Assembly: GCA_035626775.1 (NCBI GenBank) | Contig: DASPNA010000155.1 | Span: 63 to 64,062, forward strand | Direction of reading: 5' to 3' | From: Thermoanaerobaculia bacterium | GTDB lineage: Bacteria > Acidobacteriota > Thermoanaerobaculia > Gp7-AA8 | DNA length: 64,000 nt | In this document: piece by piece, positions 3,489 to 62,514 of the stretch | How the letters are laid out: each line of letters begins with the position of its first letter | Numbering within the stretch: the first letter of the stretch is position 1 | The notes under the pieces: model-generated | Databases searched by the model: none | What the model was told of the DNA's origin: nothing | What the model saw: only the letters and a program-made list of their open reading frames with translations | Program-made: the position numbers and the translations under genes

Positions 3489-4265
3489 ATGGCCACAGCA
3501 TTCAGATATCCAACCGGAGCGCGTCCGCTGCTGATCGAAGAGACAGCGCGGCGACGGATGCTCGAAGCGCGCGTCGTCGCGCTGCTCGAAGCGGCGAACT
3601 TCGCTGAGATCGTGCTGCCCGTCATCGACTTCGCCGAGCCGTACGCGGGCATCGGTCATGCCGCTTCGAAACGGAGTTACCGCTTCACCGATCGCGACGG
3701 AGAGCTCGTCGCGGTGCGCTCCGACTTCACGCCGATGGTGGCCCGCGCGCTCGCGCCATCGCTCAACGGCAACTTGCCACTGCGGGTGTTCTATCGCGGC
3801 GATGTGATCCGCTGCGACGCATCTCGACTGGGCAAAAACCGGGAGCTCTTTCAGATCGGCGCGGAGATCGTCGGCGACCCGTCGCGCGATGCCGATCTCG
3901 AGATGCTGCATCTCGCCGCCGCTATCGCCGCGATCTTCAGCGAGTCTCCGCTCGTGGTGTACAGCGGCGGCCAGCACATCGATGATCCGCGCTTCGTCGA
4001 GCACGATGACACGGTGAGTTCCTCGGGTTCCTCGAGGTCCCTCGGGTTCCTCGGAGGGGTGGGCAGCGGTCGGCTCCTCCCCTCCGAGGAACCCCGAGGA
4101 ACCCCGAGGAACTCCGAGGAACGCGGCTACTACACAGGCGTGCGCTTCTGGGTGTACGGCGACGAGCGCCGCGCGCCGCTCGCGCAGGGCGGGCGCTACG
4201 ACACGTTGTACGAGCGCTTCGGGAAACGTGCGCCGGCCGTCGGCTTCACGTTCACGGTGAACTGA
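3489..4265 (+). CDS. hisZ: ATP phosphoribosyltransferase regulatory subunit HisZ (258 aa) carrying an in-frame repeat insertion
   Basis: HisRS-like motifs YRFTDRDGELVAVRSDFTPMVAR, LFQIGAEIVG, RGYYTGVRF and QGGRYD. TGATG overlap with hisG, and a short-form HisG lies downstream. Confidence 0.85.
   Translation: MATAFRYPTGARPLLIEETARRRMLEARVVALLEAANFAEIVLPVIDFAEPYAGIGHAASKRSYRFTDRDGELVAVRSDFTPMVARALAPSLNGNLPLRVFYRGDVIRCDASRLGKNRELFQIGAEIVGDPSRDADLEMLHLAAAIAAIFSESPLVVYSGGQHIDDPRFVEHDDTVSSSGSSRSLGFLGGVGSGRLLPSEEPRGTPRNSEERGYYTGVRFWVYGDERRAPLAQGGRYDTLYERFGKRAPAVGFTFTVN
4016..4122. repeat. Family D palindromic element (GTTCCTCGG...CCGAGGAAC arrays) inside hisZ
   Basis: Left arm GTTCCTCGGGTTCCTCGAGGTCCCTCGGGTTCCTCGGAGG. 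Right arm CCTCCGAGGAACCCCGAGGAACCCCGAGGAACTCCGAGGAAC. Translated in frame as VSSSGSSRSLGFLGGVGSGRLLPSEEPRGTPRNSEE. Confidence 0.85.
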
Positions 4266-4891
4266 TGCGCATCGCCATTCCCAAAGGACGTCTGCAGCCT
4301 GAAGCCCTGGCCACGTTTGCGAATGCGGGGTGGGACGTGCCATCCGAATCCGATCTGCGCACGCGCAAGCTCGTCTTCGCGCGCGGCGGCATCGAATGGA
4401 TCTTCGTCAAAGACGGCGACGTGCCGGTGTACGTCGATCACGGCGCCGCGGACGCGGGCATCGCCGGCCTCGATCAGCTCCTCGAGCACGACTGCAGCGC
4501 ATTCCAGGCGGTCGAGCTGCCGTACGGCCGCTGCCGGATGATGCTCATCGGCGGCCCGGACGCGCCGCCGCTAGGCTACGACTCGAAGATCGCAACGAAG
4601 TATCCCCGCATCGCCCGCCAATGGCTCGACGCACGCGCGATCCGCGCGGAGCTCGTCGCGCTCAACGGATCCGTCGAGCTCGCGGCCGTACTCGGACTCA
4701 CATCGCACGTCATCGACCTCGTCGAGACCGGCGAAACGGTGCGGGTGCACAAGCTCGAGCTGCAGGACTGCATCGCCGAGATCACGCCGCGGCTCATCGT
4801 CGCGCAACACAGCTATCGAACGAACAACCGCGAGATGCGCGCACTGATCGCGCGCGTCGAGGAGAGCATTCATGAACGCATCGTCGCCTGA
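4265..4891 (+). CDS. hisG: ATP phosphoribosyltransferase, short form (208 aa)
   Basis: MRIAIPKGRL..., DVPVYVDHGAADAGIAG, LIGGP, KIATKYP, GSVELA. It lacks the C-terminal regulatory domain, which is consistent with a HisZ partner. Confidence 0.9.
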   Translation: MRIAIPKGRLQPEALATFANAGWDVPSESDLRTRKLVFARGGIEWIFVKDGDVPVYVDHGAADAGIAGLDQLLEHDCSAFQAVELPYGRCRMMLIGGPDAPPLGYDSKIATKYPRIARQWLDARAIRAELVALNGSVELAAVLGLTSHVIDLVETGETVRVHKLELQDCIAEITPRLIVAQHSYRTNNREMRALIARVEESIHERIVA

Positions 4892-6032
4892 AGCGGAAGC
4901 CGCCCTGCGCGAGCTGGAGACACGTCGCCGTGCCGCAAATGAAAACGCGTTTCGCGTGGCCGATGAAATGATCGAAGGGGTGCGCACGCGCGGAGATGCG
5001 TACGTGGCCGAGCAGATCGCGAAGTTCGATCGCGTCAATATCACGCCGATCCTCATCACACCGCGCGACGTGCGCATCGATCCGGAGCTCGCCGCCGCGC
5101 TCGACATCGCCATCGAACGCGTCGAGTCCTTTCACATGCGCCAGCTCCCGCGGTCGTATCAGTGGAACGACATCACACATCGCGTACGTCCCCTGCGCCG
5201 CGCCGGCGTGTACGTGCCGGGCGGACGCGCGGTGTACGTCTCGACGCTGATCATGTGCGCCGTGCCGGCGCGCATCGCCGGCGTTCCCGAGATCGTGGTC
5301 GCGACGACGCCTGCCGCCGCCGCTCGCGACGAGTTGCACTACGTCTGCAATCGCCTCGGCATCCGCGAGCTCTATCAATGCGGCGGTGCAGCCGGCATCG
5401 CCGCGCTCGCCCTCGGCACGGGGTCCCTGCAGCGCGTCGACAAGATCGCCGGCCCCGGCAACTCGTACGTCAACGCGGCGAAGGTACGTCTGGTCGGCGA
5501 GGTCGGCATCGACATGACCGCCGGTCCGACGGAGCTCGTCGTCATCGCGGACGACACCGCGGACGCGGCGCTCGTGCAGGCGGATCTCGACGCGCAGCAG
5601 GAGCATGGTGCCGACTCCGCGGTGATCTGCATCTCGATCGGCAAAGCCCTCGACGTTCGCGCAACGCTGAACCTCGTTGCCGACTCGATCGACGAAGCGA
5701 TCGGCATCTCCGACCGCATCGCACCCGAACATCTCTGCATTCACGCGCGCGATGCGGAGCTCGTCGCCGCAAAGGCGCACAACGCCGGCGCGATTTATTG
5801 CGGTGCATTCGCGCCACCGGCGATCGGCGACTACATCGCCGGCTCGAATCACGTGCTCCCGACCGCCGGCAGCGCGCGCTTCTTCTCTCCGCTCGGCGTG
5901 TACGACTTCGTGAAGCGTACGAACATCGTCGCCTTCAGCGCGGAAACACTGAGCGAGCTGGCGCCGTACGCGGCTGCCATCGCAGAGTTCGAAGGGCTGC
6001 CGCAACACGCGCGATCGGTGGTGGCCCGATGA
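4872..6032 (+). CDS. hisD: histidinol dehydrogenase
   Basis: VRTRGDAYVAEQIAKFD, YVPGGRAVYVSTL, IAGPGNSYVNAAK, AEHLCIH-like APEHLCIHA, GDYIAGSNHVLPT, EGLPQHARSV. Overlaps hisG by 20 nt and hisC by ATGA. Confidence 0.9.
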   Translation: MNASSPEAEAALRELETRRRAANENAFRVADEMIEGVRTRGDAYVAEQIAKFDRVNITPILITPRDVRIDPELAAALDIAIERVESFHMRQLPRSYQWNDITHRVRPLRRAGVYVPGGRAVYVSTLIMCAVPARIAGVPEIVVATTPAAAARDELHYVCNRLGIRELYQCGGAAGIAALALGTGSLQRVDKIAGPGNSYVNAAKVRLVGEVGIDMTAGPTELVVIADDTADAALVQADLDAQQEHGADSAVICISIGKALDVRATLNLVADSIDEAIGISDRIAPEHLCIHARDAELVAAKAHNAGAIYCGAFAPPAIGDYIAGSNHVLPTAGSARFFSPLGVYDFVKRTNIVAFSAETLSELAPYAAAIAEFEGLPQHARSVVAR

Positions 6033-7072
6033 GCGCGCGCGCGACCGTCGCGGCGATGACCGCTTATGCACTCGAACTGCGTGAGGCCGAGGTGAAGCTG
6101 AATCAGAACGAGTCGCCGTTCGATTTTCCGCTGAAAGACGAGGTGCTCGCGCGCGCCGCCCGGCGCGCGTGGAATCGCTATCCCGACTTCGAGTCGACCG
6201 CTCTGCGCATCGCACTCGCGAATGCGTACGGCTTCGATGCGGACGAGATCCTGGTCGGCAACGGCTCGAACGAGTTGCTCGTCGCGGCAATCGGCACCTT
6301 CGTCGGATCAGGCACGTCCGTCGTCATCGCCCGTCCGACGTTTGCGTTGTACGAGAAGCTGATCACGATCGCGGGCGGAGTGGTGATCCCGATCGATATC
6401 GATCCAGCGACGGGACTCCTGCCGCTCGACGAGATGATCGCGGCGCGCGGCGATGTCGTCATCGTCTGCTCGCCGAACAATCCCACCGGCGGCGCGCTGC
6501 CGGAGAACGGGATCGAACAGCTGCTCGCCACCGGAGCGACGGTGCTCTTCGATCGCGCATACGGCGACTTTGCGCTGGACTCTGTATGGAGTGCGGCAGC
6601 AAAGCTGCCGCTTTCAAAGCGGCTGCGCCAGCTGCCACACTCCATAGCGAGCCGGCTGGTCACGTTCTCCACGTTCTCGAAGGCGTGGGGGCTGGCGGCA
6701 TTGCGCGTCGGGTGGCTCGCCTCGACCGCGTCGACATGTCGCGAGATTCGCAAGGTGAAGTTGCCGTACTCGCTCAATATCGTCAGCGAAACCGCCATTG
6801 TGCTCGCGCTGGAGCACCGTGAGATTTACAGCGCGAACGTCGCACGCATCATCAGTGAGCGGGAGCGGATGATCGACGCGATGCGCGCGGTCCCGAACGT
6901 CGCCCCGTTTCCGACGAAGGCGAACTTCATCGCCTTCCGCACGCGCGCGTCGTTCGACGACTTCTGCGAGCGCGGCATTCTCGTACGCAGATACGCCGAC
7001 TTTCTGCGCGTCTCGATCGGCACGCGCGCGGAGAACGATCGGTTTCTCGACGCATTGAAGGAGCTCGCATGA
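6029..7072 (+). CDS. hisC: histidinol-phosphate aminotransferase with an in-frame repeat insertion
   Basis: KLNQNESPF, VGNGSNELL, CSPNNPTGG, TFSKAWGLAALRVGW (PLP lysine). The start ATG overlaps the hisD stop (ATGA at 6029-6032). The upstream part of track ORF 5162..7072 is out of frame with hisD and is not coding. Confidence 0.9.
   Translation: MSARATVAAMTAYALELREAEVKLNQNESPFDFPLKDEVLARAARRAWNRYPDFESTALRIALANAYGFDADEILVGNGSNELLVAAIGTFVGSGTSVVIARPTFALYEKLITIAGGVVIPIDIDPATGLLPLDEMIAARGDVVIVCSPNNPTGGALPENGIEQLLATGATVLFDRAYGDFALDSVWSAAAKLPLSKRLRQLPHSIASRLVTFSTFSKAWGLAALRVGWLASTASTCREIRKVKLPYSLNIVSETAIVLALEHREIYSANVARIISERERMIDAMRAVPNVAPFPTKANFIAFRTRASFDDFCERGILVRRYADFLRVSIGTRAENDRFLDALKELA
6587..6644. 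repeat. Family A palindromic element (58 bp) inside hisC
   Basis: TGGAGTGCGGCAGCAAAGCTGCCGCTTTCAAAGCGGCTGCGCCAGCTGCCACACTCCA. Read in frame as (V)WSAAAKLPLSKRLRQLPHS(IA), just upstream of the TFSK PLP-lysine motif. Confidence 0.9.
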
Positions 7073-7656: not shown

Positions 7657-8237
7657 TTCTGATCGACTCCCCCGTCGCGAACATGGCGAACATCGCGCGC
7701 GCGCTGCGTGAAGTCGGTGCGGCCGCGGAGATCACGCGTGATCCGGCGGCCGTCGCGCGCGCGCAAAAACTGGTGCTGCCGGGCGTCGGCTCGTTCGGCG
7801 TGGCGATGCAGTTCCTGCGTGAGGCGCACATCGACGAAGCCATTCGCGAAGCTGTAACCAACGGCGCGTTCCTGCTCGGCATCTGCGTCGGTCATCAGGT
7901 GCTCTTCGACCATTCTGACGAATACGGCATCACCCGCGGCCTCGGGCTCGTGCGCGGCGCAGTGCAGCGGTTCAGTGGTCCGATGCCGGTACCGCAGATC
8001 GCCTGGAACCGCGTGCGTGCGCGCGGGCCGCTGTTCGACGGCGTCGAGAATGAGTCGTTCTACTTCGTGAATTCGTACGCCGCGCGCGATGCACGCGACG
8101 AAATCGCCGCCGCCGATTACAACGGCGCGTTCACCGCCGCCGTGCAGCGGGGGCGCGTGTTCGGCGTGCAGTTTCATCCCGAAAAGTCGTCGCACGCCGG
8201 GTTGCGCGTGCTGAGGAACTTCGCCGCATGCAACTGA
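7653..8237 (+). CDS. hisH: imidazole glycerol phosphate synthase, glutamine amidotransferase subunit
   Basis: [20 protein letters not shown] (Cys nucleophile), GVQFHPEKS. The start is assigned to TTG 7653 (TTGA overlap with the hisB stop, GAAGGGGG upstream). The conserved N-terminal strand ILIDSP lies before the first in-frame ATG, so the start codon is less certain than the gene call. Confidence 0.8.
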
Positions 8238-9688
8238 TTCCTTCGCTCGACCTGTTGGGCGGACGCGTCGTGCGGCTCACACGCGGTGCGTTCGAGAGCG
8301 CGCGCGTGTATGGCGAGCCGGAGGCGGTGCTGGACTCACTCGAAGTGCCGCGCGGCACGCGACTGCACGTCATCGACCTGGAAGGCTCGCGCAGCGGCGC
8401 TCCGATCGAGACAGAGGTCGTGCGCAGACTCGCGCAACGCGACCTCGCCGTGCAGGTCGGCGGCGGCGTGCGCTCGCTCGAAGACGCTCTGCGATGGTTC
8501 GATTGCGGCGCGGATCGCGTCGTCGTCGGCACCGTCACGGCGGATGCACCGCGTTTGCTTGCGTTGCTCGTCGAACAGTTTGGCGCCGAGCGCATTCTGC
8601 CGGCGATCGACGTTCGCGATGGCGTCATTCGCGTCGACGGCTGGTCGCGCGCGTCGTCGACGTCGCTGCGCGATGCGTTCGCGTGCATCGAAGCGCTCGG
8701 CATCCGCGAAGTGCTCGTGACTGACATCTCGAAAGACGGTGTGCTGCGCGGTCCTTCGTTCGCGTTGTACCGCGAGCTGCGCGGGATGACGCGCGTGCGA
8801 TTGATTGCATCCGGCGGCGTCTCGACCACGACCGACATCGTCTCGCTCGCCCGCCTGGGCAACGTGAGCGGCTGCGTAATCGGCCGCGCGTTGCTCGAAC
8901 GGCACATCGATCTCCGCCGCGCTCGCGCGCGATTGGCAGTGCCGGATGCGATTCCGGAGCGCATCATCCCGTGCCTCGACGTACGTGACGGCCGCGTCGT
9001 CAAGGGCGTCTCGTTCACGAACGTGCGCGACGCCGGCGATCCGGTCGAATGTGCGATGCGTTACGAGGCGGAAGGCGCCGATGAACTGGTGATGCTCGAC
9101 ACCTCCGCGACCGATCGCGGGGCCGCGACGGCAGTCGAGACCGTGCGTCGCGTTGCGGACTCGATCTTCATTCCGCTCACGGTCGGCGGCGGCGTGCGCA
9201 CACGCGAAGAGTTTCGTGCGCTGCTGCGCGCTGGAGCGGACCGCGTTGCGCTCAACACCGCGGCGGTGCGGCGTCCGGAACTGATTCGCGAATGTGCCCA
9301 GGAGTTCGGCGTTCAGGCGGTGGTGCTCTCGTGCGATGCGAAGGATGGTCGTGCGACCGTGCGCAGCGGCAACGAGGTGACCGGCATCGACGTCGTCGAC
9401 TGGTGCCGTCGCGCAGAGGAGCTGGGTGCGGGAGAGATTTTGCTCACGTCGGTCGAGCGGGACGGCACGAACCGCGGCTTCGACATCGAGTTGCTGCGCG
9501 CGGTGACGAGCGCGTTGACGATCGGCGTGATCGCATCCGGCGGCGCCGGACGCGTCGAGGACTTTCGCGATGCGATCGAAGCGGGCGGCGCGCGCGCCGT
9601 GCTCGCGGCTTCGCTCTTTCACGATCGTGTGCTGAGCATCAGCGCTGTCAAACAGCATCTTCGAGAAGAAGGGATTCCAGTGCGATGA
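8228..9688 (+). CDS. hisA/hisF: fused HisA~HisF: ProFAR isomerase joined to the IGP synthase cyclase subunit in one 486-aa ORF
   Basis: N-terminal half: [33 protein letters not shown] (HisA). From about aa 250: [34 protein letters not shown] (HisF). There is no stop codon between the halves in the given sequence. Confidence 0.85.
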
Positions 9689-10284
9689 GACTCATCCCTG
9701 CCATCGTTCGAGACAGCCGCAGCGGCGCGGTGCTGACGCTCGCGTACATGAATGACGAGTCGCTGGCGAAGACGCGCGAGAGCGGCGAGACGTGGTTCTG
9801 GAGCCGCAGCCGCAACGAGCTGTGGCACAAGGGTGCGACGAGCGGCAACACGCAGCGCGTGATTCACATCGCCGAGGATTGCGACGGCGATGCGCTCGTC
9901 GTGACGGTCGAGCCGAACGGCCCTGCATGTCACAACGGCACGACGTCGTGTTTTCGCAACGTGCCGGAGTTGCCGCTCGAGCGGCTGATGGCCGTGCTGC
10001 GCGCGCGCCACGAGTTGCGTCCGAGCGATTCGTATAGCGCGTATCTCTTCACCGAAGGGCTCGACAAGATCCTGAAGAAGATCGGTGAAGAGGCGACGGA
10101 AGTCGTGATCGCCGCGAAAGGCACGAGCCGCGAGCGGCTGGTCAGCGAGCTCGCCGACCTCGTGTTTCACCTGAGCGTGCTGATGGTGAATGAAGGCGTC
10201 GAGTGGCGCGACGTCGAGGCAGAGCTGGAAGCGCGAATTTGGAGTGCGGCGGCACAGCCGCCGCTTTCAAAGCGGCAGTGTTAG
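9685..10284 (+). CDS. hisIE: bifunctional phosphoribosyl-AMP cyclohydrolase / phosphoribosyl-ATP pyrophosphatase
   Basis: HisI: [37 protein letters not shown]. HisE: [33 protein letters not shown] overlap with the hisA~F stop. The last ~14 aa ([15 protein letters not shown]) and the stop come from a Family A element. Confidence 0.9.
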
Positions 10285-10297
10285 CTGCCGCACTCCA
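10240..10297. repeat. Family A palindromic element (58 bp) between the convergent hisIE and PKS-NRPS genes
   Basis: TGGAGTGCGGCGGCACAGCCGCCGCTTTCAAAGCGGCAGTGTTAGCTGCCGCACTCCA. Outer stem TGGAGTGC/GCACTCCA encloses hairpins GGCGGC-ACA-GCCGCC and GGCAG-...-CTGCC. Confidence 0.9.
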
Positions 10298-10303
10298 AGT
10301 GGG

Positions 10304-26697
<16,394 letters not shown>

Positions 26698-29700: not shown

Positions 29701-32700
29701 GAGACCTTCCTGCACGATGGCAGCGCGGAGGTTCTCGTGGCGCGCCACGAGTGCGTTCGCGGCGTTGCGCATGCGCGCGGCGTCGAGTGGGCCGGAGAGC
29801 TCGACGCAGAGTTGCACGGTGTACACGTCGTGCGCACTGGCGTCGTGGAGCGTGTGATAGACGAGGCCTTCCTGCAGCGATGAGAGCGGCAGGATGGTTT
29901 CGATATCGGGATAGCGCGCTTCGAGCGTTTCGACTTCGTGCTGCGAGAGCGCGACCAGTGGAAAGTCGGACGGTGTGTGACCTTTTGCGCCGCGCGCGAC
30001 GTCGGATGCGAGGTGTTCGAGCGCATCGCGCCAGCGGTTCGCGAGTGTGCGCACGTGCGCTTCGTCGAAATGACGTGTGGCCCATGTCCAGGTCGCGGTC
30101 AGGCGCGGACCGGCCGGCTCGTCGAGCACCTGGGCGTTGATGTCGAGTGGGTGGAACAGCGGCATCGAGGGATGAACGTTCTCGATGTTTGCGTCCTCGT
30201 CGACGGGTGACCACTCCCCTTCCCGTGTTGTCGCGATGCGGCCGAGGTAGTTGAAGCCGACCTGTGCCGGAGTTTGTGCGGGTGCCATGGCGCGCAGTTG
30301 TTCCTTGACCTGTTTGATCGAGCCGCCGATGGCGACCGTGTCGATGCGCGTGAACCAGCCGACGGTGCGGGAGAGATCGAATGCGCCGTCGCGGCCGTGG
30401 CTTTCGAGATCGATGACGAGGCTTTTCTCGCCGAATGCGTTTGCGAGTGCGGTGAGGAGGACGTCGTTGATGCGCGCGTGGAAGGCGGCGGGGACCGTGG
30501 TTAAGAGTTGGGACGTTAGAGCTGTTGGGATGTCGAGCGTGAGGTGTCTTGCAGTCGCGAACGTGTCGAGTTTGGGATCGAGAGCGGCGGCTGGCGCTGC
30601 CGCTTGGAAAGCGGCGGCTGGCGCCGCCGCACTCCATACGCGGAAAGGGATTGGTTCGGGATCAATAGGTTCGCCGCGAAGGGCGGCCACGAGATCCTGA
30701 TGGAGGATGCGCCATGAGACGCCGTCAACCGCGAGGTGGTGGATGATCAGCAGCAGGCGAGTCGGCGACCAGACGGCTTCGAAGATGCGGCCGTTGCGCG
30801 CGCCGAACTGGAACGACGGGCTCTCAGCCTGTCGAATGTCGGTGATGCGCGTCAATCGCTCGCGCGCGGAGACGCTGCCGCGCGGCGCGATGATCAAACG
30901 GTCGCCTTCGAGGCGCATGCGCAACGCGTCGTGTGTGTCGAGCAGCGTCTGTAACGCGGCGACGAGTTTCTCTTGGTCGAGATCTTCGGGCGTTGAAAGC
31001 AGTAGCGATTGGTTGAAGCGATCGCCCGCTGAGCCACTACGTTCGAGGAATGAGCGCATCAGCGGCGTGGGCATCACTTCGCCGATCGCGTCTTCTTCGC
31101 TCCACGTCGGGCGGGCTTGCGCGATCTTCGCGACCGCGGAAAGCGCTTCGACGGTCTGATGCTGGAAGACGTCGCGCGGCGTGAGCTCGAGGCCCGCTTT
31201 GCGTGCGCGGCTGACGAGCTGGATGGCGATGATGCTGTCGCCGCCGAGAGTGAAGAAGTTGTCTTCGACGCCGACCTTGTCGAGGGTGAGCACTGCGGCG
31301 AAGAGATCGCCGAGGAGTTGTTGCTCGCGCGTGCGCGGTGCGCGATAGGTTTCCGTTTGGCGATCGGGTGCGGGAAGTTTCGCGTGATCGAGTTTGCCGT
31401 TGGCGTTGAGCGGGAGTGCGTCGAGGTAGACGAACGCGCTCGGAATCATGTAGTCGGGGAGGCGCTGCGCGAGCGCAGCGCGCAACCCCTCATCCGCCCT
31501 TCGGGCACCTTCTCCCCTCTGCGGAGGGGAGAAGGCTCCATTGGGTAGCCCTCGCCACGCTTGCAGGGAGAGGCGCAACCCCTCATCCGCCCTTCGGGCA
31601 CCTTCTCCCCTCTGCGGAGGGGAGAAGGCTCCATTGGCTAGCCCTCGCCCCGCTTGCGGGGAGAGGCGCAACCCTTCATCCGCCCTTCGGGCACCTTCTC
31701 CCCTCTGCGGAGGGGAGAAGGCTCCATTGGGTAGCCCTCGCCCCGCTTGCGGGGAGAGGCGCAACCCTTCATCCGCCCTTCGGGCGCCTTCTCCCCTCTG
31801 CGGAGGGGAGAAGGCTCCATTGGGTAGCCCTCTCCCCGCTTGCGGGGAGAGGGTGGCCGAAGGCCGGGTGAGGGGCGTCGCCACGATGTAGGCAACCAGC
31901 CGTTGGTCGCGCGCGATCACGACCGCTTCGCGAATGCCGTCCTGTGCGAGCAGCGCCGTTTCGATCTCGCCGAGCTCGATGCGGAAGCCGCGCAGCTTGA
32001 CCTGAGCGTCGATGCGGCCGAGGAAGTCGAGGTTTCCGTCTGCACGCCAGCGAGCGAGATCGCCGGTTCGGTACATGCGTTCACCGGTCGCGAACGGATT
32101 GGCGACGAAGCGCTCCGCGGTCATCGCGGCGCGGCCGACATAACCGCGCGCGAGACCTTCGCCGGCGACGTACAGCTCCCCTGCTACGCCGATCGGCACC
32201 GGTTCGAGATTCGCGTCGAGCACGTACACGCGCGTGTTGTCGATCGGGCTGCCGATGGGGATGCTGCCGCGCAGCTCGTGATCGCGCGGGACCGGATAGC
32301 AGGAGGTGAAGGTCGTGTTCTCGGTGGGGCCGTATCCGTTGATGACGTGGGTTACTTTGCGGGCGCGTTCGACGGCGTCGACCGATACCACGTCACCGCC
32401 GGTGAGCAACTGCTGCACGCCCGCGAGCGCTGGCAGTGCGTAGTTCACCATCTGCGTGAAGAGGCCAGAGGTCAGCCACAGCGTGTTCACGCGTTGCGCG
32501 ACGACGGCGGCGCCGATCTCTTGGACCGATGGCAGGCCCGGTGGCATGAGCACCACGGTTCCGCCGTTCAGCAGCGGGCCCCAGATCTCGAGCGTGGCCG
32601 CGTCGAAGCTGAGCGGGGCCATGTGCAGCATGCGGGTGTTCTTGTCGAGTGTCGCGAAGTTGGGTTCGTGGACCAGGCGCATCACCGCGGCGTGTGTGAC

Positions 32701-34677: not shown

Positions 34678-53600
<18,923 letters not shown>

Positions 53601-55338: not shown

Positions 55339-55371
55339 TCTTGCCGGAAAGATTAACCCAACCGCGCGCCC

Positions 55372-55479
55372 GGGTACCTCGGAGTACCTCGGGTACCTCG
55401 GAGTTCCTCGGAGGAGATTGGGATTCGGCGGCTCAATCCCTCCGAGGAACTCCGAGGTACCCGAGGAACCCGAGGGACT
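55372..55479. repeat. Family D palindromic element, intergenic (MBL to ABC spacer)
   Basis: GGGTACCTCGGAGTACCTCGGGTACCTCGGAGTTCCTCGGAGG-(central GGGATT...AATCCC hairpin)-CCTCCGAGGAACTCCGAGGTACCCGAGGAACCCGAGGGACT. Confidence 0.85.
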
Positions 55480-55484
55480 CCGTT

Positions 55485-56642
55485 CTACGCCAGTTGCACC
55501 TGAACCCCGTACCCGTCTGTCTCGCGATACTCCACCTTGTAGCTCCGCGTCTTCAGGTCCGCTTGGAAGAACTTCGCCACTTCGTCGCCCACAGCCGGAT
55601 CGTTGAAGTCGCTCGGCGCGTACGTGATCCAGATCGTGAAGTCGTCGTCCGTGCGCGACTTCGAGATCATCTCCAGCGTCGGCACGTCGGGGTTCGTGTA
55701 CTTGCCATCGGCGGAGATCACGTAGTGCTTCGCGCGGATATTGTCGAAGTAATCCTGCTTCACGTTGCGATCGCTGCCGTGATGCGGGAGCTTGAGCAGA
55801 TCGACTTCGAGCGGCTTGCCGTCATCCTTCAATAGTCCGGCTTTGCGCAACGCGGCGAGCGTGAAGTCGCCGCGCGCGTCGCCGGTGAGCAGCATGCTCT
55901 TGCCCTCCGCCTTCGCCAGCACGACGATCGACGAGAGGTTGTACACGGACTTGTCGACGTAATCCGCGAGCTCCGCCTCCGCCGACTTGCTCGCCGCCGC
56001 CTTCGCCAGCAGCTCCTGCACCTTCTTGTCCCAGTCCTTCTGCAGCGCAGCGAGGTTCTTCTCGTCCGGCCCGAGCACCGTCAGCTCGAGACCATCGAAG
56101 TCGATCGCATCATGCGGCTCTTTCACGATGCCGCCGAACGGCGGGTTCCCTTCCAGTCCGAAGAACTTCACGAGGTCGCGTAGCTCGCGCCCCTGCCCCA
56201 CGCTGGCCAGCATGTTCGAGCCGTCGAAGTGCGGGAAATCGGCGCCCGCGATCGACGCAGTCTGCAACGCCGTGTTCGCAGGCGCCGGCGCCGCGTTCGT
56301 GCCTCCCGTGAGATCGTCGAACGCGTTGTGCCAGAAGCGCGAGATCTTCCACGGCAACGGTTTCTTCGCCTGGCGCTGATCGCGCAGTTTGCGCATGAGG
56401 TCGAGAATGCCGGTGATGTGATCGGCGTCGAGATGGCTGACCATCATCAGGTCGATCTCGAGCGCGTCGTTCGCGCCGAGGCCGCGCTCATCGCGGATTT
56501 CCATGAGGCGCGGCCGCACGGCATCGGCGTACACGCCGCCGGGACCCGCATCGATCACCGCCAGCCGCGGCTGGGCCTCCGTGCCGTAGTGCAGCAACAA
56601 CGCATCGCCATGCTTCGCGCGCAACGCTTCGAGGATGAACAT
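55485..56642 (-). CDS. MBL-fold metallo-hydrolase (ComEC/Rec2-like MBL architecture), 385 aa, no signal peptide
   Basis: MFILEALRAKHGDALLLHYG...VIDAGP, MMVSHLDADHITG (HxDxDH variant of HxHxDH), LLTGDARGD, LKLPHHGSDRN, VISADG. Confidence 0.75.
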   Translation of the reverse strand: MFILEALRAKHGDALLLHYGTEAQPRLAVIDAGPGGVYADAVRPRLMEIRDERGLGANDALEIDLMMVSHLDADHITGILDLMRKLRDQRQAKKPLPWKISRFWHNAFDDLTGGTNAAPAPANTALQTASIAGADFPHFDGSNMLASVGQGRELRDLVKFFGLEGNPPFGGIVKEPHDAIDFDGLELTVLGPDEKNLAALQKDWDKKVQELLAKAAASKSAEAELADYVDKSVYNLSSIVVLAKAEGKSMLLTGDARGDFTLAALRKAGLLKDDGKPLEVDLLKLPHHGSDRNVKQDYFDNIRAKHYVISADGKYTNPDVPTLEMISKSRTDDDFTIWITYAPSDFNDPAVGDEVAKFFQADLKTRSYKVEYRETDGYGVQVQLA

Positions 56643-56670
56643 CGATGTCTCCTCTTCTTCGATGAGCTAA

Positions 56671-56771
56671 CCCTCATCCGCCCTTCGGGCACCTTCTCCC
56701 CTCGTGGAGGGGAGAAGGCTACACAAGGCCCCGCGCCTGGGGGAGAGGGCTACCAAAGGCCGGGTGAGGGG
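56671..56771. repeat. B/C composite element, intergenic (S8 to MBL spacer)
   Basis: CCCTCATCCGCCCTTCGGGCACCTTCTCCCCTCGTGGAGGGGAGAAGG...CCCCGCGCCTGGGGGAGAGGGCTACCAAAGGCCGGGTGAGGGG. Confidence 0.85.
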
Positions 56772-56801
56772 CGGATTCGTGCTGGCTCATGGCCCTTCCA
56801 G

Positions 56802-58757
56802 TCAGACGGACTGCAGCGCGCGCAGGATGTCGAGCATCCCCGCGCCCTGAAAATAGCGCTCGCGCCCGAGGTCGGTCGCGGAGTCGCGGAGGATCTGCTT
56901 GATGCGCATCGGCCGCCCGACCAGCTCGTCGTAGCGCGCCATCAGCAGCGCAGCGGCGCCGCTGACGTGCGGCGCGGCCATGCTCGTGCCGTCCTTGACG
57001 CCGTACGACGCGTTCGGCAGTGCGGACATGATTTTTTCGCCCGGCGCAACGAGATCGGGCTTGAGCCGTCCGTCGCCTGTCGGTCCGCGACTGGAGAAGT
57101 AGCTGACGCCGTACGTGTGCGGCCGCTCGCGATGCGTCGCTCCGACCGTGATGACCAGATCGGCGTTGCCGGGATCGGTGATGCTGATCGTGTTGTACGA
57201 CTCGTTGGTCACGCCTTCGATGGTCGTGCGGCGATAGCCCTGGTTGCCCGCCGCCACCACCACCACCACGCCCGACGACACCACGCGCTCCGCTTCTTCG
57301 CACACGGGCGTGCGGCCGCACGCGTAGTTGGCAACGTCATGCGGAATGGAGAGGCTCATGTTGACGCCGTGCACGGCCATGTAGTCGTTCGTGGAGTTCA
57401 ACCACCGCACGAACTGCAGCGCCGCCATCACCGTGAACTCATCTCCTCGGCCATCGTCATCGAGGATGCGCAGGTCGTAGAGATTGATGTCGGGACAGAC
57501 GCCATTGATGTTGCCTTCCTCGTCGTCGCTCTTCCAGTTGCCGCCGAGGATGCCGGCGACGTGCGTGCCGTGATCGAACTTCGGCGGCTTGTATGTGGCG
57601 TCGTGCGGGATCTTGAGCAGCGGCGCGATGATGCCCCAGTCGATCGACATGCCGGTCGACAGCGCATCCGACAAACGGTCGGTGTGTTTCTTCAGCTCAG
57701 CGCCGGTGACACTTTTACCTTCGACGAGCGAGTCGATGTTCTCGTCGGGATCGAGGAGCTGCTGGATCTTCGCGAAGTCGTAGGTCTGGCGCACGCGCGA
57801 GTCGTACGACGCGAACGGCACATCCGACTCGGCGGGCTGAGAGCCCGCCGCTCCAGATTTCTTCTTTGGCTTGTCGATGCGGAACGCGGGATGCGCCGCG
57901 TCGACACCGCTGTCGATGATCGCCCACGTGATTTCCTTGCACGAGATGCCGAAGACGCGTTCGGCCGCATCGGCCTTCACCGCTTTGCGCGAGCCGGCGA
58001 TGGTCGGCGTGGCCACACGATTGAGCGCGATCGAATGAATGAGCGGCGGGACGTCGCGCTCGTGGACGCCTGACATCAGCTCGCCTACTTCGTCGACGAG
58101 CACGCGCCAGTCCTCTTCACCGGCGCGCGCGGGTCCGCGTTCCTTGTCGAGGAACACGGGCGGCAACGTCTTGCCGCGATGCACGAGCGCGATTGCGCCG
58201 ACCACGCGGATCAACCACAGCACATCGGGCGGGACCTTCGGCAATCCAGCGTTCGATGTCGTGTGCTCCGGATCCACCACCGCCTTCGCCAGGTTCGCAC
58301 GCACCTCGGCTTTCTGCAGGTTGTCGAGCTCGAACTTGTCCGCGAGCTTCTTCCACCACTGCGTCATCGGGATGACGGCGCGCACGAGATCTTCGAAGTA
58401 GAGCGTCGCGGCGATGGTGGACTGGTTGTAGACGATGCGCAGTCGCGCGTTCGGATCGTGCGCGATGTTCCACGAGCCTTTCGCGCGCGTGATCGCGACG
58501 TGCTCGCGCAGGATCTGCTGCACCTCGCCGATGCGCGCCTCGCGGTACGGTGAGAGCAGCAGGTTCACGGCGGGACGCGGATCGGTCTCGCTGGTGCGGC
58601 GCGTGAGGCGTTGCGGGAAGTTGTTCGGATCGATGGCGTACTCGAGCCACACGTCGGGCAGCACCGGCGAGTCCTGCGTGAAGCGGCGCACGCGGCCGCT
58701 GCCGAACATCAGTTGATCGATCAGCCAGCGATCGAGATAGACCGGCTTGTCGGGCAT
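56802..58757 (-). CDS. S8 (subtilisin-like) serine peptidase, 651 aa, cytoplasmic (no signal peptide), with a ~240-aa N-terminal region of unknown function
   Basis: Catalytic motifs WAIIDSGVDAAHPAF (Asp, aa ~282), DHGTHVAGILGG (His), DGTSMAAPHVSGAAALL (Ser). The start is 3 nt after the patatin stop. Confidence 0.88.
   Translation of the reverse strand: MPDKPVYLDRWLIDQLMFGSGRVRRFTQDSPVLPDVWLEYAIDPNNFPQRLTRRTSETDPRPAVNLLLSPYREARIGEVQQILREHVAITRAKGSWNIAHDPNARLRIVYNQSTIAATLYFEDLVRAVIPMTQWWKKLADKFELDNLQKAEVRANLAKAVVDPEHTTSNAGLPKVPPDVLWLIRVVGAIALVHRGKTLPPVFLDKERGPARAGEEDWRVLVDEVGELMSGVHERDVPPLIHSIALNRVATPTIAGSRKAVKADAAERVFGISCKEITWAIIDSGVDAAHPAFRIDKPKKKSGAAGSQPAESDVPFASYDSRVRQTYDFAKIQQLLDPDENIDSLVEGKSVTGAELKKHTDRLSDALSTGMSIDWGIIAPLLKIPHDATYKPPKFDHGTHVAGILGGNWKSDDEEGNINGVCPDINLYDLRILDDDGRGDEFTVMAALQFVRWLNSTNDYMAVHGVNMSLSIPHDVANYACGRTPVCEEAERVVSSGVVVVVAAGNQGYRRTTIEGVTNESYNTISITDPGNADLVITVGATHRERPHTYGVSYFSSRGPTGDGRLKPDLVAPGEKIMSALPNASYGVKDGTSMAAPHVSGAAALLMARYDELVGRPMRIKQILRDSATDLGRERYFQGAGMLDILRALQSV
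57831..57856. repeat. Family E half element inside the S8 peptidase gene
   Basis: GGCGGGCTGAGAGCCCGCCGCTCCAG. Host peptide SGAAGSQPA, lying between the Asp and His motifs. Confidence 0.75.
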
Positions 58758-58760
58758 CGA

Positions 58761-59897
58761 TCAAACCCCGCCCGGGCACGGGAACGCGGTGGGCTTGAAG
58801 GCGCCCGTGTCGAAGTAGCTGCGGATCGCACGTTCGGCCATGCCGTAGCCGAAGTTGATGATGCGGTTCTGCGCGTCGTTGCTCAGCTCCGCGAGCCGCG
58901 TCGGCGTCTTCGCGAGCGCCATCGCGTTAGCATCCGTCATCGGCAGCGCGACCACCGGATACTCGGACGGCTTGGTCCACATGCCCCAGTACGTGCCGCT
59001 GTGCTCATCGTTCGGATCGACGAACGCGGAGACGACCTGGCGCTTGCGCAGGCTGCGCACCTGGTTGTCGATGGTGCCGTTGATGCGGATGGAGTGCTGC
59101 AGCCAGATCGAGCTCGGGTTTTCTTCCGGCTGATACTTGCCGCCGCCATCGCTGACGAGCACGCGCTTACAGCGCTTCCACGCGGTCTCAATGCCCATGT
59201 TGTCGTACACGCCGCCGTCGGTGAGCACGACCTTGGTCGTGAACGGCGGCTTGCCGCAGTTGTCGGTTTCAAGGCTCGACCACTGGCTGTGCTGAAACGT
59301 CAGCCGCGCCGGTGAGAGCACGGGCGGAAACGCCGACGATGCGGCCACTGCTTCAGCGACGCCGACGGCCGGATTTTTGATCATGCCGATGCGGTAGTCG
59401 GCGATGTACGGCTTGGAGAAACGGAAGAGCGATCCGGTCTGCACGTTCGTTGCGTTGATGACGAAGCGGGGGCGGTCGACGATGTCCTGTAGCGTCGCGT
59501 CGCCGAAGAGGATCTTGCGATAGCTCTTGATGATGCGGTCGCTGATGGTGGTGCCGGGCGTGAAGATTCCGCCAAGCACGCCACCGGCGTCGATGGTGGT
59601 GCTGGCCATCTTGCGCACCGGCACGACGATGATGTTGGCAAAATTCGTTGCCTTGCCGTTCGCGTCGAACTGCAGGTTTTTCCAACGCGTGGCGAGCACG
59701 CCCGCTGTGATGGAACCGCCGGAAACGCTCGACACGCGATCGAGCTTCGGCAGATAGCCGGCGTCGTTGAGATACCACAGCGTGCCGAGGTGGAAGAGCA
59801 TGGCGCGATAGCCGCCGCCGGAGAGGCAGAGCGCGAGCTGGTCCTCGAGCTTTCCATCGCCGACATCGCTGGTGAGAGGTAGATCGACGTTCGACAT
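58761..59897 (-). CDS. patatin-like phospholipase, 378 aa, no signal peptide
   Basis: Oxyanion motif LSGGGYRAMLFHLG, nucleophile motif SSVSGGSITAG, catalytic Asp motif LTDGGVYDNMG. Confidence 0.85.
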   Translation of the reverse strand: MSNVDLPLTSDVGDGKLEDQLALCLSGGGYRAMLFHLGTLWYLNDAGYLPKLDRVSSVSGGSITAGVLATRWKNLQFDANGKATNFANIIVVPVRKMASTTIDAGGVLGGIFTPGTTISDRIIKSYRKILFGDATLQDIVDRPRFVINATNVQTGSLFRFSKPYIADYRIGMIKNPAVGVAEAVAASSAFPPVLSPARLTFQHSQWSSLETDNCGKPPFTTKVVLTDGGVYDNMGIETAWKRCKRVLVSDGGGKYQPEENPSSIWLQHSIRINGTIDNQVRSLRKRQVVSAFVDPNDEHSGTYWGMWTKPSEYPVVALPMTDANAMALAKTPTRLAELSNDAQNRIINFGYGMAERAIRSYFDTGAFKPTAFPCPGGV

Positions 59898-60096
59898 GCG
59901 GGAGCCCCCTTGTCTTGTCGTAGTGATGTCCCGGCGGAAAACGTTACATCAACCCGCGCGCAGGCGGCGCGTTTTTGCGGACTTGGCCGCTCCGCCGCGG
60001 CCGCCGTCAGTCATCGAAACGCGTTCGCATTCAACCAGCCGTGCCGAAGGTCGTAGAGCCGCGGGCTCGCGATCTGCACGTGATCCGCATTGCGCT

Positions 60097-62514
60097 ATGA
60101 CGGGACGATCGACTCTCCGCGCTTCCTTTCTTCTCCTGCTGCTGCTCTCGTTCTCTTTCGTCGCATCTGCGCAAACCTGCGACGACCCGGCGCAACCCAC
60201 TGTCGGCATTACGGTCTCTACGCCCGATGCCTTTGGCAATGCCACCGCAACCCTTACCTACACGTATCCACCCTGGGTCACAGTGCGTTCATTGGCACTC
60301 TGGAGCGAAAACGCCCAAATTGCATACACCGAGCCGATTACTTCCTCCGGCTCCTGGCCCGTGAACGTCAGCGTCGCCTGCAAACGCGGTCCCTCGGTGG
60401 ACTTTCTGGCCATCGCTACGTCCTGCCGGAAATGGAATCAGGGGGGATATGTCGCATACGGTTCTGTGAATGTGGCGGTGTCGAGCAAACCGACGCTCAG
60501 CATGAACGTCAGCGGTCCTGATACCGCCGGTATCGTCAATGCGACGCTCACGTACAACTTCCCGAACACCCCGTCCGCCTTCCTGCGTCCCCTGGCATTG
60601 TGGATCGACGGCGTGCAGCATGCGTACAACGAGGCCCAGCAGCAATCCGGAACGTGGCCCGTGACGATCAATACGAACTGCTGGTTCCCGAAGACATACA
60701 CGTTTGTCGGATACGCGACGGCATGCAGAGTGTGGAACGATCCGGATTACCTGACCTCACAGACCGCCGCAGTCCAGATCGGCGCACCTCCGACAGTCGA
60801 CGTGGCGATCTCGGGCCCGAACGCGAACGGCCAGACCGACGCGAGCGTGACCTATAACTTCCCCAATACCGATGGCCCGTCCCGGCGGCACATCACGATC
60901 TGGCTGGACGGCCAACAGATCGCTGTTTACCAGCCCGGCACCATCAGTGGAACGCTGCCGCCGCATCCCCTGCCCACATGCCTCGCGTCCGGCTCGCACA
61001 CCGTCAACGTCTATGCCACCGTCTGTCAGCGCTGGAATGAGAACGGATACTCGGCGACGGACTCGGCAACGTTCACGACGACGAAGCCGCACGTGTCGCT
61101 ATCGCTGCGCAAACTCGGCCTCGATGCGGCAACCGGCCGCCGCATCATCGAAGTCACCTCCGCATATCAAGCCAACCAGCCGAGCGCGATTCTGCGAGTC
61201 GATCTCCTCAAGTGGGTCGATGCGAAAAAACAGAGTTACAACGGAGGCAACCTCCGGACCATCAGCCTCAATCCGACCACGGACACGGACGTGTTCACGT
61301 TCCTCGCTCCCTCCGGTGCCCGGCAGCTGGCGCTTCGCGCACAGCTCGAAGGGTGTGAAGTGGTCACCGACCCTGCCGCCATCGAGTGCGACGACTGTGA
61401 CGGCAACGCGTCCGGGAATCCCGTCTATTACAGCGATGGCAACATGAGACTGGCCGACTTCGATCCGCTGCCGCGCATCGGCGAATGGTCCCTGACCCGC
61501 ACCTACGACAGTGACGAGCAGGTCGGCGGCCTCTTCGGACGCGGCTGGACCGCTCTGCTCGACCAACGCGTCATCGTCCAGGACGGCTATCTGACGGTGA
61601 CCACCGAATCCAATGAGGCGGTCATCTTTACGAAGATCGGCAGCATCTACCGCCAGAGTTGGCCTTCCAATAAGGGGCCGTCCGGCACGATGGTGCATGA
61701 TCCGGCCACCGCGACCTACACCTACCGCGCCGCCGGTTCCACAGTGGACGCCGTCTTCAATGATGCGACAGGCTCGATCATGAAGTGGCGTAACCGCGCT
61801 ACGAATGCCGAGGCCGTCGTCACATACGACGCGTCAGGACGCCCCGCGACATTCACCGACTCGGTCACCGGCACGACCTGGAATCTCACGCTCAACGCCG
61901 CGCGCCGTGTCACTTCCATTGCCGTGGCGGGTCATCCGTCCCTGGTCTGGACCTACGACTATGACGGCAGCGAGAATCTCATCGCGGTGCTCGCTCCGGG
62001 AAGCTCGACATGGCGCACGTACGAATACGCGTCGAACCGCATGACTGCGTCCCGCGACGCGCTCGGCAACCTGATCGAAAGCCACACATACGACGCGAAC
62101 GGCTATGCCATTTCCTCGACCGGCAACATCGACGAGATCGCCGCGATCGCGTACGACCTGCCGGGATCGCAGCCGTCGGAGCGCATTACGCGCGTTACGT
62201 ACAGGAACGGCTCACAGGCCGATTACACGATGCGGCCGGTCGGCGGGGCCATGCGGACAGTGGGCATCAGCGGCGGCTGCGCCAGTTGCGGGGCGTCCGA
62301 GGCGACGTTCGTTCGCGATCAGCAGGGGCGTGTGGTGCGGTTGCAGGGAGCGGACGGCTACATCATCCGCTCGACGTACAACGAGGACCGCATCCTGATG
62401 GAAGAGCGCGCGCTCAAGCCCGCCGGCTGCAATCCGCCACGGACGCGCAGCGTTGCCGGATGGACACGGATGCTCTGGCCGCCGCGGCGCTCGAAACCAC
62501 CAGCGCGTCGCTGA
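60097..62514 (+). CDS. RHS/YD-repeat protein, N-terminal segment (signal peptide, 4 Cys-containing repeats, first YD repeats); the frame terminates after a frameshift
   Basis: ATG 60097: MTGRSTLRASFLLLLLLSFSFVASAQ (signal peptide). YD-type repeats VVTYDASGRPATFTD, WTYDYDGSENLIAV, SHTYDANGYAISS. From ~62437 the frame becomes Arg/Pro-rich nonsense and stops at 62514. The track ORF start at 59872 overlaps the patatin gene and is not used. Confidence 0.8.
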   Translation: MTGRSTLRASFLLLLLLSFSFVASAQTCDDPAQPTVGITVSTPDAFGNATATLTYTYPPWVTVRSLALWSENAQIAYTEPITSSGSWPVNVSVACKRGPSVDFLAIATSCRKWNQGGYVAYGSVNVAVSSKPTLSMNVSGPDTAGIVNATLTYNFPNTPSAFLRPLALWIDGVQHAYNEAQQQSGTWPVTINTNCWFPKTYTFVGYATACRVWNDPDYLTSQTAAVQIGAPPTVDVAISGPNANGQTDASVTYNFPNTDGPSRRHITIWLDGQQIAVYQPGTISGTLPPHPLPTCLASGSHTVNVYATVCQRWNENGYSATDSATFTTTKPHVSLSLRKLGLDAATGRRIIEVTSAYQANQPSAILRVDLLKWVDAKKQSYNGGNLRTISLNPTTDTDVFTFLAPSGARQLALRAQLEGCEVVTDPAAIECDDCDGNASGNPVYYSDGNMRLADFDPLPRIGEWSLTRTYDSDEQVGGLFGRGWTALLDQRVIVQDGYLTVTTESNEAVIFTKIGSIYRQSWPSNKGPSGTMVHDPATATYTYRAAGSTVDAVFNDATGSIMKWRNRATNAEAVVTYDASGRPATFTDSVTGTTWNLTLNAARRVTSIAVAGHPSLVWTYDYDGSENLIAVLAPGSSTWRTYEYASNRMTASRDALGNLIESHTYDANGYAISSTGNIDEIAAIAYDLPGSQPSERITRVTYRNGSQADYTMRPVGGAMRTVGISGGCASCGASEATFVRDQQGRVVRLQGADGYIIRSTYNEDRILMEERALKPAGCNPPRTRSVAGWTRMLWPPRRSKPPARR
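60199..61400 (+). repeat. four tandem ~98-100-aa protein repeats at the RHS N-terminus
   Basis: Units start at 60199 (TVGITVSTPD), 60493 (TLSMNVSGPD), 60793 (TVDVAISGPN) and 61090 (HVSLSLRKLG, divergent). Shared motifs: ATLTYxFPNT, LALWxDGxQxAY, SGTWPV, and two Cys per unit (..C....; ATxCxxWN). Confidence 0.8.

Follow-up and report, generated by a model that had tools for sequence, protein, structure and literature searches.

Introduction

In 2025, death effectors licensed by proteases came to be seen as a dominant principle of bacterial immunity, and the tested modules built on metallo-beta-lactamase (MBL) fold effectors are linked to trypsin-like or caspase-like proteases (PMC12799240; PMC12642450). 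HamM, VcMBL, AtMBL, and CanC are pro-nucleases that act in phage defence after two site-specific cuts by a partner protease (PMC12799240; PMC12642450). Tuck et al. (2025, Science, PMC12799240) described HamM and the Avs-linked MBLs as 'gated' pro-nucleases, in which a trypsin-like partner protease cuts after two isoleucines, one in each insertion, and reported phage defence by Canu, a caspase-linked counterpart, as well. Evans et al. (2025, bioRxiv, PMC12642450) found that VcMBL, cut twice (I133 and I232), becomes a Zn-dependent dsDNA nuclease, and they recognised three clades of protease-associated MBLs, whose partners are trypsin-like, caspase-like, and S8 subtilisin-like proteases, respectively; their experiments covered the first clade only, while the S8-linked clade 3 was catalogued. 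Alpha/beta-hydrolases, also protease-activated zymogens, constitute the other prevalent protease-licensed effector (PMC12642450). The present analysis concerns a cassette of three genes, encoding a patatin-like phospholipase, an S8 subtilase, and a ComEC-like MBL-fold hydrolase, in a 64,000-nucleotide stretch of a Thermoanaerobaculia bacterium (contig DASPNA010000155.1, assembly GCA_035626775.1), hereafter the window, and the relation of this cassette to the protease-licensed modules.

The cassette lies on the minus strand and begins with the patatin gene (58761-59897, 378 aa), followed by the S8 gene (56802-58757, 651 aa) and the MBL gene (55485-56642, 385 aa). The original prediction, made from the letters of the window, had put these co-oriented genes forward as a candidate conflict module, quoting their motifs and a 3-nt gap between the first two; the open reading frames (ORFs) are exactly as stated there, and the catalytic residues prove invariant in 37-42 homologues. 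Since the three ORFs are long, match their families strongly, and have thousands of full-length homologues, they are not chance. The spacing of only 3 nt between the patatin stop codon and the S8 start codon (TGA-TCG-ATG) suggests that these two genes are co-expressed.

A conserved subtilase-MBL pair

To assemble the S8-anchored set of loci, one genome per species was scanned, and tblastn and ORF clustering were then applied; the set contains 38 loci in which an S8 relative with the same N-terminal domain lies on a contig that continues past the gene. An MBL homologue (30-75% identity) is found on the same strand, 3-111 nt downstream of S8, in 37 of the 38; the lone exception, L060, carries a fragmented S8 gene. 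ORF clustering found no conserved neighbour across phyla other than the MBL gene, and the distances among S8 proteins are correlated with those among MBL proteins (Mantel r = 0.86, n = 40, p = 5e-4). Because of this adjacency, the lack of any other conserved neighbour, and the correlated distances, it is the pair that forms the functional unit, and the S8-MBL pair is both conserved and obligate. It is distributed over at least six phyla, with representatives in the Acidobacteriota, Actinomycetota, Planctomycetota, Myxococcota, Gemmatimonadota, and Alpha-, Beta-, and Gammaproteobacteria, and it is carried on conjugative plasmids as well. Loci such as L003 and L180 hold the pair without patatin.

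All three proteins of the cassette are predicted to be cytoplasmic. Hydropathy analysis (Kyte-Doolittle, 19-residue windows, rather than SignalP) revealed no signal-peptide-like or transmembrane-like hydrophobic stretch in patatin, S8, or MBL, with maxima of 1.30, 1.54, and 0.97, in contrast to the neighbouring ABC exporter, which reaches 2.61 and has 65 windows above 1.6. The absence of signal peptides, as originally described, is thus borne out.

The S8 subtilase and its N-terminal domain

The subtilase consists of a catalytic domain (residues ~263-651; 56802-57971, minus strand) preceded by a family-specific N-terminal domain (residues 1-262; 57972-58757, minus strand). The catalytic residues Asp282, His396, and Ser592, together with the oxyanion Asn505, are invariant in 42 homologues. 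Pfam Peptidase_S8 matches at 4.6e-42 and covers residues 276-640 only, and the PADLOC 'subtilase' model PDLC03014 matches at 3.9e-39. Full-length homologues, including the N-terminal region, number in the thousands; the best 120 are all full-length and 57-81% identical.

Residues 1-262 have no Pfam match, even at E <= 1, which agrees with the original description of an N-terminal region of unknown family. A profile of this domain, searched against 1.84 billion representatives, gave 783 matches (clusters at 50% identity), always at the N-terminus, in proteins whose full length is about 600-840 aa. The AlphaFold2 (AF2) model is confident over residues 1-250 (pLDDT ~80-93), and the linker at 254-267 is disordered yet conserved. 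The full-length model finds its best PDB matches among unprocessed pro-subtilisins, and hhalign detected no similarity between the N-terminal domain and the I9 propeptide of subtilisin BPN' (probability 0.07). The domain is a candidate regulatory, sensor, or prodomain-like region. A phage-borne origin of the family was considered and set aside, as the IMG/VR scan gave only generic S8 domains at no more than 32% identity (47% only over 42 residues).

The MBL hydrolase as a predicted gated pro-nuclease

The MBL protein carries SHLDADH at residue 69, a ComEC-type HxDxDH motif, and LPHHGS at residue 285, both invariant in 37 homologues, and its metal motifs comprise H70-x-D72-x-D74-H75, D255, H287/H288, and H306. 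Pfam yields weak Lactamase_B matches only, and more specific matches come from defence-related models: PADLOC LmuA at 5.5e-54 (residues 2-347 against 3-320 of 345), RTasMBL at 1.7e-30, and Avs1a at 2.9e-30, with NCBIfam Avs1a at 8e-41 (140 bits, below the curated cut-off of 420). A profile search of the PDB finds only ComEC, and the closest Foldseek matches of the AF2 model (pLDDT 81.9) are Pce esterase and the beta-lactamase-like nuclease domain of ComEC. Neither sequence search nor Foldseek retrieved a solved gated-MBL structure, the best matches being ComEC, Pce, and RNase Z-type proteins. By its sequence matches, the MBL is assigned to the defence-associated, ComEC-like family of protease-associated pro-nucleases. 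Because it belongs to this family, by PADLOC, NCBIfam, and Foldseek alike, the earlier guess that the hydrolase is possibly a nuclease was well founded.

At 385 aa, the protein exceeds the 266-aa ComEC domain 9ic4 by about 120 aa, and for this reason two insertions seem to be extra. Insertion 1 (residues 111-147; 56202-56312, minus strand) is disordered (AF2 pLDDT 25-48) and hypervariable, with a length of about 45-95 aa among 40 homologues, in which its C-terminal motif is always kept; this closing motif reads L145-A146-S147-V148-x-Q-G151-R152, or hydrophobic-A-S-V-x-Q-G-R across homologues. By analogy with the cleavage sites I118/I218 of HamM and I133/I232 of VcMBL, insertion 1 is a candidate protease-cleaved gate. 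Insertion 2 (residues ~194-236; 55935-56063, minus strand) is modelled as a helical hairpin (AF2 pLDDT 66-80) and appears to be absent from the ComEC domain, as judged by protein lengths rather than residue-level alignment. On the strength of the model, it may serve as a second gate.

Patatin, a facultative third gene

The patatin protein (Pfam Patatin, 4.1e-23) contains the oxyanion motif GGGYR at 27-31, SVSGG at 57 with the nucleophile Ser59, and TDGG at 226 with Asp227. A patatin gene precedes S8 in about 26% of S8-anchored loci, lying immediately upstream in L001, L002, L004, L012, L021, L058, L175, L178, and L179; in L001, L002, and L179 the full trio stands on long contigs with no NRPS (nonribosomal peptide synthetase) or RHS gene nearby. 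The reverse approach, a patatin-anchored set obtained by a metagenome scan, contains about 14 loci with S8-MBL downstream and about 17 that have enough room for the pair and lack it. The original proposal that the three genes form one unit therefore holds for the S8-MBL pair, obligate in 37 of 38 loci, and not for patatin, which is present in only about one quarter and has solo homologues of up to 84% identity.

Where patatin accompanies the pair, its distances are correlated with those of S8 and MBL no less closely than the latter are with each other (Mantel r = 0.92 against S8 and 0.88 against MBL, n = 17). In the patatin tree, the trio state occupies deep branches and solo states are scattered, with at least eight changes, and the tiny patatin-S8 spacing (3 nt or similar) is kept across phyla and on a plasmid cassette flanked by insertion sequence (IS) elements. 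The boundary between the two parts can be sharp: the DNA of L104 and L106 is about 90% identical up to the patatin stop codon, where homology ends, and only L106 has the pair. Remnants of the pair also occur after an intact patatin gene, in L085/L086/L097 (~8162-8980) and in L114 (~4494-4949); in L085/L097, S8 residues 3-93 are joined straight to MBL residues 218-384, and L114 is similar. The neighbours of L085 include CHAT, caspase-like, and another MBL-like gene.

Patatin also occurs with another kind of protease-MBL pair. In L124-L129 (e.g., L126 1275-5842), a member of the same patatin family (51-53% identity) comes after a CHAT-like protease and its MBL, so that the gene order differs from the trio, with patatin last. 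The protease partner there is a 764-aa protein whose CHAT-like His/Cys motifs were judged by eye and which has no Pfam, PADLOC, or PDB match, and the MBL is of LmuA type (1e-73). Elsewhere, a Tle1-like phospholipase (DUF2235) lies downstream of the pair in Miltoncostaea (L176), and a TIR protein lies upstream of the pair in L017, with TIR also present on the plasmid pCMU01. We regard patatin as a facultative accessory that is inherited with the pair and probably acts as a second effector.

Comparison with known defence systems

Judged by sequence, the pair in the window probably corresponds to the S8-linked clade 3 of Evans et al. (PMC12642450). The likeness lies in a ComEC-like MBL encoded beside a dedicated protease, with matches to LmuA, Avs1a, and RTasMBL, in an MBL core modelled with one disordered and one helical insertion, and in the co-divergence of protease and MBL. 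Here the protease gene precedes the MBL gene, whereas in clade 1 the MBL is usually upstream; in contrast to the tested modules, the protease here possesses a private 260-aa N-terminal domain and lacks a known sensor (STAND, Hachiman, RT, SMC). A further difference from protease-MBL modules is the patatin gene attached in about a quarter of the loci here, a link that was not found in the defence literature searched.

Canu (CanABC), like the cassette, is a compact, self-standing locus with variable accessory genes; it pairs a non-trypsin protease with a downstream gated MBL nuclease that the protease activates, as is predicted here. The likeness extends to L124-L129, where the patatin family of the cassette joins a CHAT-like protease and an MBL. 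The protease here is a serine subtilase, whereas that of Canu is a caspase-fold cysteine protease; a CanB-like partner is absent here, and Canu loci are reported in defence islands while most loci here lie outside them. Membership in Canu was rejected on the protease type. AVAST type 1/Avs2/Avs4, HamMAB (Hachiman), and the Lamassu hydrolase-protease systems share a homologous MBL effector and a presumed protease-licensed DNase logic, but their protease is trypsin-like and fused to a sensor. Among the window ORFs examined with Pfam and NCBIfam, no STAND NTPase, HamA/HamB, or LmuB/LmuC gene lies near the trio, and the original observation that no sensor or NTPase gene accompanies it stands as far as known sensors are concerned. 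AVAST type 1 was discarded because Avs1a scores 140 bits against 420 and no STAND/NTPase gene lies beside the trio, which is flanked by an RHS gene and an ABC exporter, and Lamassu because only LmuA-type MBL matches were obtained, with no SMC-like gene in the window flanks or conserved in 26 loci.

Two further systems had been named in the original prediction, the CBASS patatins and ietAS, both of which employ in anti-phage defence an intracellular patatin lipase or subtilase, enzyme types that this cassette also encodes. The resemblance does not extend to membership. IetS models match at 2.4e-10 or weaker, NCBIfam IteS scores 21.5 bits against a cut-off of 900, and IetA is not adjacent; CBASS/CapV phospholipase effector models reach only 3e-4 and 1e-3, and no cyclase is present in the cassette or conserved nearby.

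The closest relative of the S8 catalytic domain is a sister clade (L025-L057, catalytic domain 35-49% identical) that is followed by, or fused to, an alpha/beta-hydrolase. It shares the two-gene layout with the effector immediately downstream, but the effector is an alpha/beta-hydrolase of about 450 aa instead of an MBL, and the N-terminal regions differ. The conserved ~450-aa hydrolase lies downstream in 15 loci (e.g., L029 9512-12596; L050 8405-10810), and other loci of the clade show fusion to an alpha/beta-hydrolase-like region in proteins of 800-880 aa, with PADLOC 'subtilase' matches up to 1e-80. This clade is probably the S8-linked version of the protease-activated hydrolase module.

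Genomic neighbourhood and locus architecture

Directly downstream of the cassette, and co-oriented with it, lie NRPS/cyclic-peptide exporter genes, and an RHS-like ORF is encoded divergently (59872-62514 and onward, plus strand), its likely start, a Met before a hydrophobic leader, lying about 199 nt from the patatin start. These neighbours had led to the suggestions that the trio is an accessory of the biosynthetic gene cluster (BGC) or is related to the RHS toxin. In tblastn searches of the related loci (178 fetched loci, 2.28 Mb), neither the NRPS condensation-adenylation-thiolation (C-A-T) module nor the RHS protein of the window found a match, and ABC matches were weak (24-31% identity) and generic. 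Because NRPS and RHS homologues are absent from all 178 loci, both readings were rejected. The cassette is found in about 45 loci of many phyla and on conjugative plasmids, never adjoining NRPS or RHS genes; it has no functional connection to the NRPS/exporter cluster or the divergent RHS gene. It travels independently of both, as the proposed neighbourhood check had asked, a distribution that suits the conflict-type module first suggested.

Plasmids offer the clearest examples. A complete trio stands alone between IS elements on a conjugative Sinorhizobium meliloti plasmid (accessory plasmid B of strain M270, NZ_CP021816.1, 160287-164554), and the pair on pCMU01 of Methylorubrum extorquens CM4 (272002-275142) adjoins cyclase-E2-TIR genes, an integrase, VapBC, and IS elements (L174 4463-7709). 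The neighbours on pCMU01 include an operon of adenylate/guanylate cyclase, E2-domain, and TIR genes, plus ImmA/IrrE. In Rhizobium phaseoli (L177), the pair lies between FRG/pYEATS and SIR2/NERD genes, its surroundings (5703-6806 and 10237-15860) encoding an FRG/pYEATS protein, DUF3616, SIR2, and a NERD-kinase. Of five plasmid contexts, three abound in defence genes or mobile genetic elements. Typical defence-island surroundings, about which the original check had asked, are not the rule, as most chromosomal neighbours are housekeeping genes; island enrichment was set aside as an argument for chromosomal loci, being weak there, with mainly housekeeping families among 119 neighbours. In three loci, each from a different phylum, an AlkZ-like DNA-glycosylase gene adjoins the cassette (L002 5392-6570, L012 10466-11674, L020 7529-7885), whether by chance or because it is functionally tied to a DNA-damaging effector.

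The MBL gene is separated from the ABC exporter by 146 nt (55339-55484, minus strand), which fold into an almost perfect hairpin, its stem about 48 bp long. The predicted RNA fold has a dG of -103.8 kcal/mol (z = -10.2), and 0 of 200 shuffled sequences fold as well. A terminator-like site follows the hairpin at 55375-55356; in a promoter/terminator scan, sites were no commoner than in shuffled sequence, and the scan supports only this terminator-like site. The spacer likely marks where the cassette ends and the NRPS cluster begins, whether transcriptionally or structurally. It is built of CCTCGGNNT(T/A)-type 10-mers, short arrays of which also occur at 4081-4118, 22974-22991, and 45898-45925.

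The S8-MBL spacer (56643-56801, minus strand) measures 159 nt and is enlarged by a REP-like repeat with its core at 56671-56701, whereas the same spacer is only 3-111 nt in homologous loci (gap sizes from 37 loci). The repeat belongs to a 31-nt element, GGGGAGAAGGTGCCCGAAGGGCGGATGAGGG, with 12 copies in the window against 0 expected, at 11418, 15618, 15702, 27170, 31487-31796, 35089, 43492, 46609, and 56671, all on the minus strand; the run at 31487-31796 contains four copies at 93-nt spacing. Eleven of the 12 copies lie within the three NRPS ORFs and are translated in frame, including a tandem run of 31-aa units, and the twelfth, at 56671, is the one that widens the S8-MBL spacer. GGGGAGAAGGTGCCCGAAGGGCGGATGAGGG resembles a palindromic element of the REP/RPE type whose in-frame insertion into coding DNA is tolerated.

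The start of the RHS-like gene probably lies some 75 codons inside the listed ORF, at a Met followed by a signal-peptide-like leader (LLLLLLSFSFVASA), and repeated Ig-like modules come ahead of its YD repeats. The listed ORF stops at 62514, though RHS-type sequence might go on, which could represent a frameshift or a pseudogene.

Proposed mechanism and alternative explanations

By analogy with the gated MBL systems, we consider it fairly probable that the S8-MBL pair is a self-contained protease/pro-nuclease conflict module of the abortive-infection type, unrelated to the NRPS and RHS genes. S8 and MBL, together with patatin where present, would be co-expressed in the cytoplasm, the MBL as a zymogen whose ComEC-like DNase site is masked by the insertions at 111-147 and ~194-236, and S8 restrained by the 260-aa domain at its own N-terminus. 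A signal, most likely of phage origin, would free S8, which would then cut the MBL insertions and release an active Zn-dependent DNase; the freed enzyme would degrade cellular and phage DNA, so that the infected cell is killed or arrested and the infection aborted. Patatin would most likely add a second, membrane-directed death activity. The co-expression and restraint steps draw on sequence and structure predictions, and the trigger, cleavage, and death steps on homology. A bolder version, in which one self-sensing subtilase, autoinhibited by its N-terminal domain, licenses both the gated DNase and patatin as a three-enzyme suicide switch without a separate sensor, is offered tentatively and is rather unlikely. 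The integration of patatin is the weakest and least secure step, held with lower confidence than the pair, because patatin is dispensable, can stand alone, and has no trio-specific columns.

Several observations weigh against this interpretation. Homology with clades that rely on other proteases is the basis for expecting MBL cleavage, DNase activity, a trigger, and a defence phenotype; no sensor domain is recognisable in the cassette, and the S8 model has low confidence at residues 504-592. The family is conserved to an unusual degree for a defence gene (57-81% identity in the top 120, with long invariant stretches), the S8 alignment scan found no relatives in IMG/VR viral contigs, and chromosomal neighbours are mostly housekeeping, with few strong defence matches among 119 in 24 loci (PADLOC and Pfam). 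As for patatin, homologues 73-84% identical occur without S8-MBL, including the closest, L084 (84%) and L087 (78%), and no alignment column splits 19 trio from 15 non-trio patatins (80% consensus), so that trio-specific adaptation of patatin was rejected.

The patatin findings bear most directly on the view that the locus consists of two independent units, an S8-MBL defence pair and an autonomous patatin engaged in housekeeping lipid turnover or single-gene defence, with the patatin 3' end as a favoured site for integration or retention of the pair. The solo patatins L084 and L087, which keep conserved synteny with glycosyltransferase genes, the lack of any residue column separating trio from solo proteins, the roughly three quarters of S8-anchored loci without patatin, and the break of L104/L106 homology exactly at the patatin stop codon are all as this view expects. 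Independence is harder to reconcile with the tiny patatin-S8 spacing retained across phyla and on the IS-flanked plasmid cassette, with the co-divergence of patatin with S8 and MBL (r 0.88-0.92), with the basal position of the trio in the patatin tree, with the recurrence of this patatin family beside a second, differently ordered type of protease-MBL pair, and with other lipase or TIR effector genes occupying the third slot elsewhere; this explanation is plausible, though rather unlikely. The housekeeping surroundings, in turn, would suit a pair, with or without patatin, that is a regulated cell-death or stress module rather than a primarily antiviral one, serving kin-selected lysis, development, or proteotoxic or DNA stress in soil bacteria. 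The high conservation, the lack of phage-borne copies in the IMG/VR scan, the AlkZ-like genes adjacent in three loci, and the stress-response roles that Evans et al. raise in their discussion for some protease-effector modules (PMC12642450) point the same way. Yet every experimentally tested protease-MBL module gives phage defence (PMC12799240; PMC12642450), and the patchy distribution, the pseudogenised remnants, and the plasmid, IS, and defence-gene contexts fit accessory immunity, which leaves a primarily non-antiviral role improbable.

Very much less probable still is a role of the trio as an NRPS accessory, providing fatty acid for a starter C domain, pro-peptide maturation, or self-resistance, or as an RHS toxin partner. 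What invites it is position, the cassette being co-oriented with and directly upstream of the exporter and NRPS genes and 199 nt from an RHS gene on the other strand. It is opposed by the lack of C-A-T and RHS homologues in the 178 loci (2.28 Mb), the weak, generic ABC matches (24-31%), the cassette that stands alone between IS elements, the -104 kcal/mol hairpin and terminator-like site that part the MBL gene from the exporter, and the predicted cytoplasmic location of three proteins of which the MBL is of a nuclease family. The protease/pro-nuclease conflict module remains the preferred reading.

Significance

The S8-linked clade has already been catalogued, and the locus provides a concrete and very widespread representative of it, with the N-terminal domain in 783 clusters at 50% identity and members on plasmids of cultured Rhizobium, Sinorhizobium, and Methylorubrum. 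Because the cassette lacks a known sensor, the S8 N-terminal domain is a candidate for a new mechanism of trigger recognition. Natural presence/absence variants and deletion remnants are usable for comparative work. For genome mining, the locus illustrates that an NRPS cluster can share its orientation with a mobile cassette to which it is unrelated, whose genes should not be taken for BGC tailoring or resistance genes.

The possibility of multiple effectors would be new. The recurrent link to patatin, replaced elsewhere by a Tle1-like lipase or TIR, suggests that one protease may control several effectors. If true, the two-effector switch would be the first example in bacteria of a single protease that arms a nuclease as well as a membrane lipase, and would define an abundant defence family in soil bacteria.

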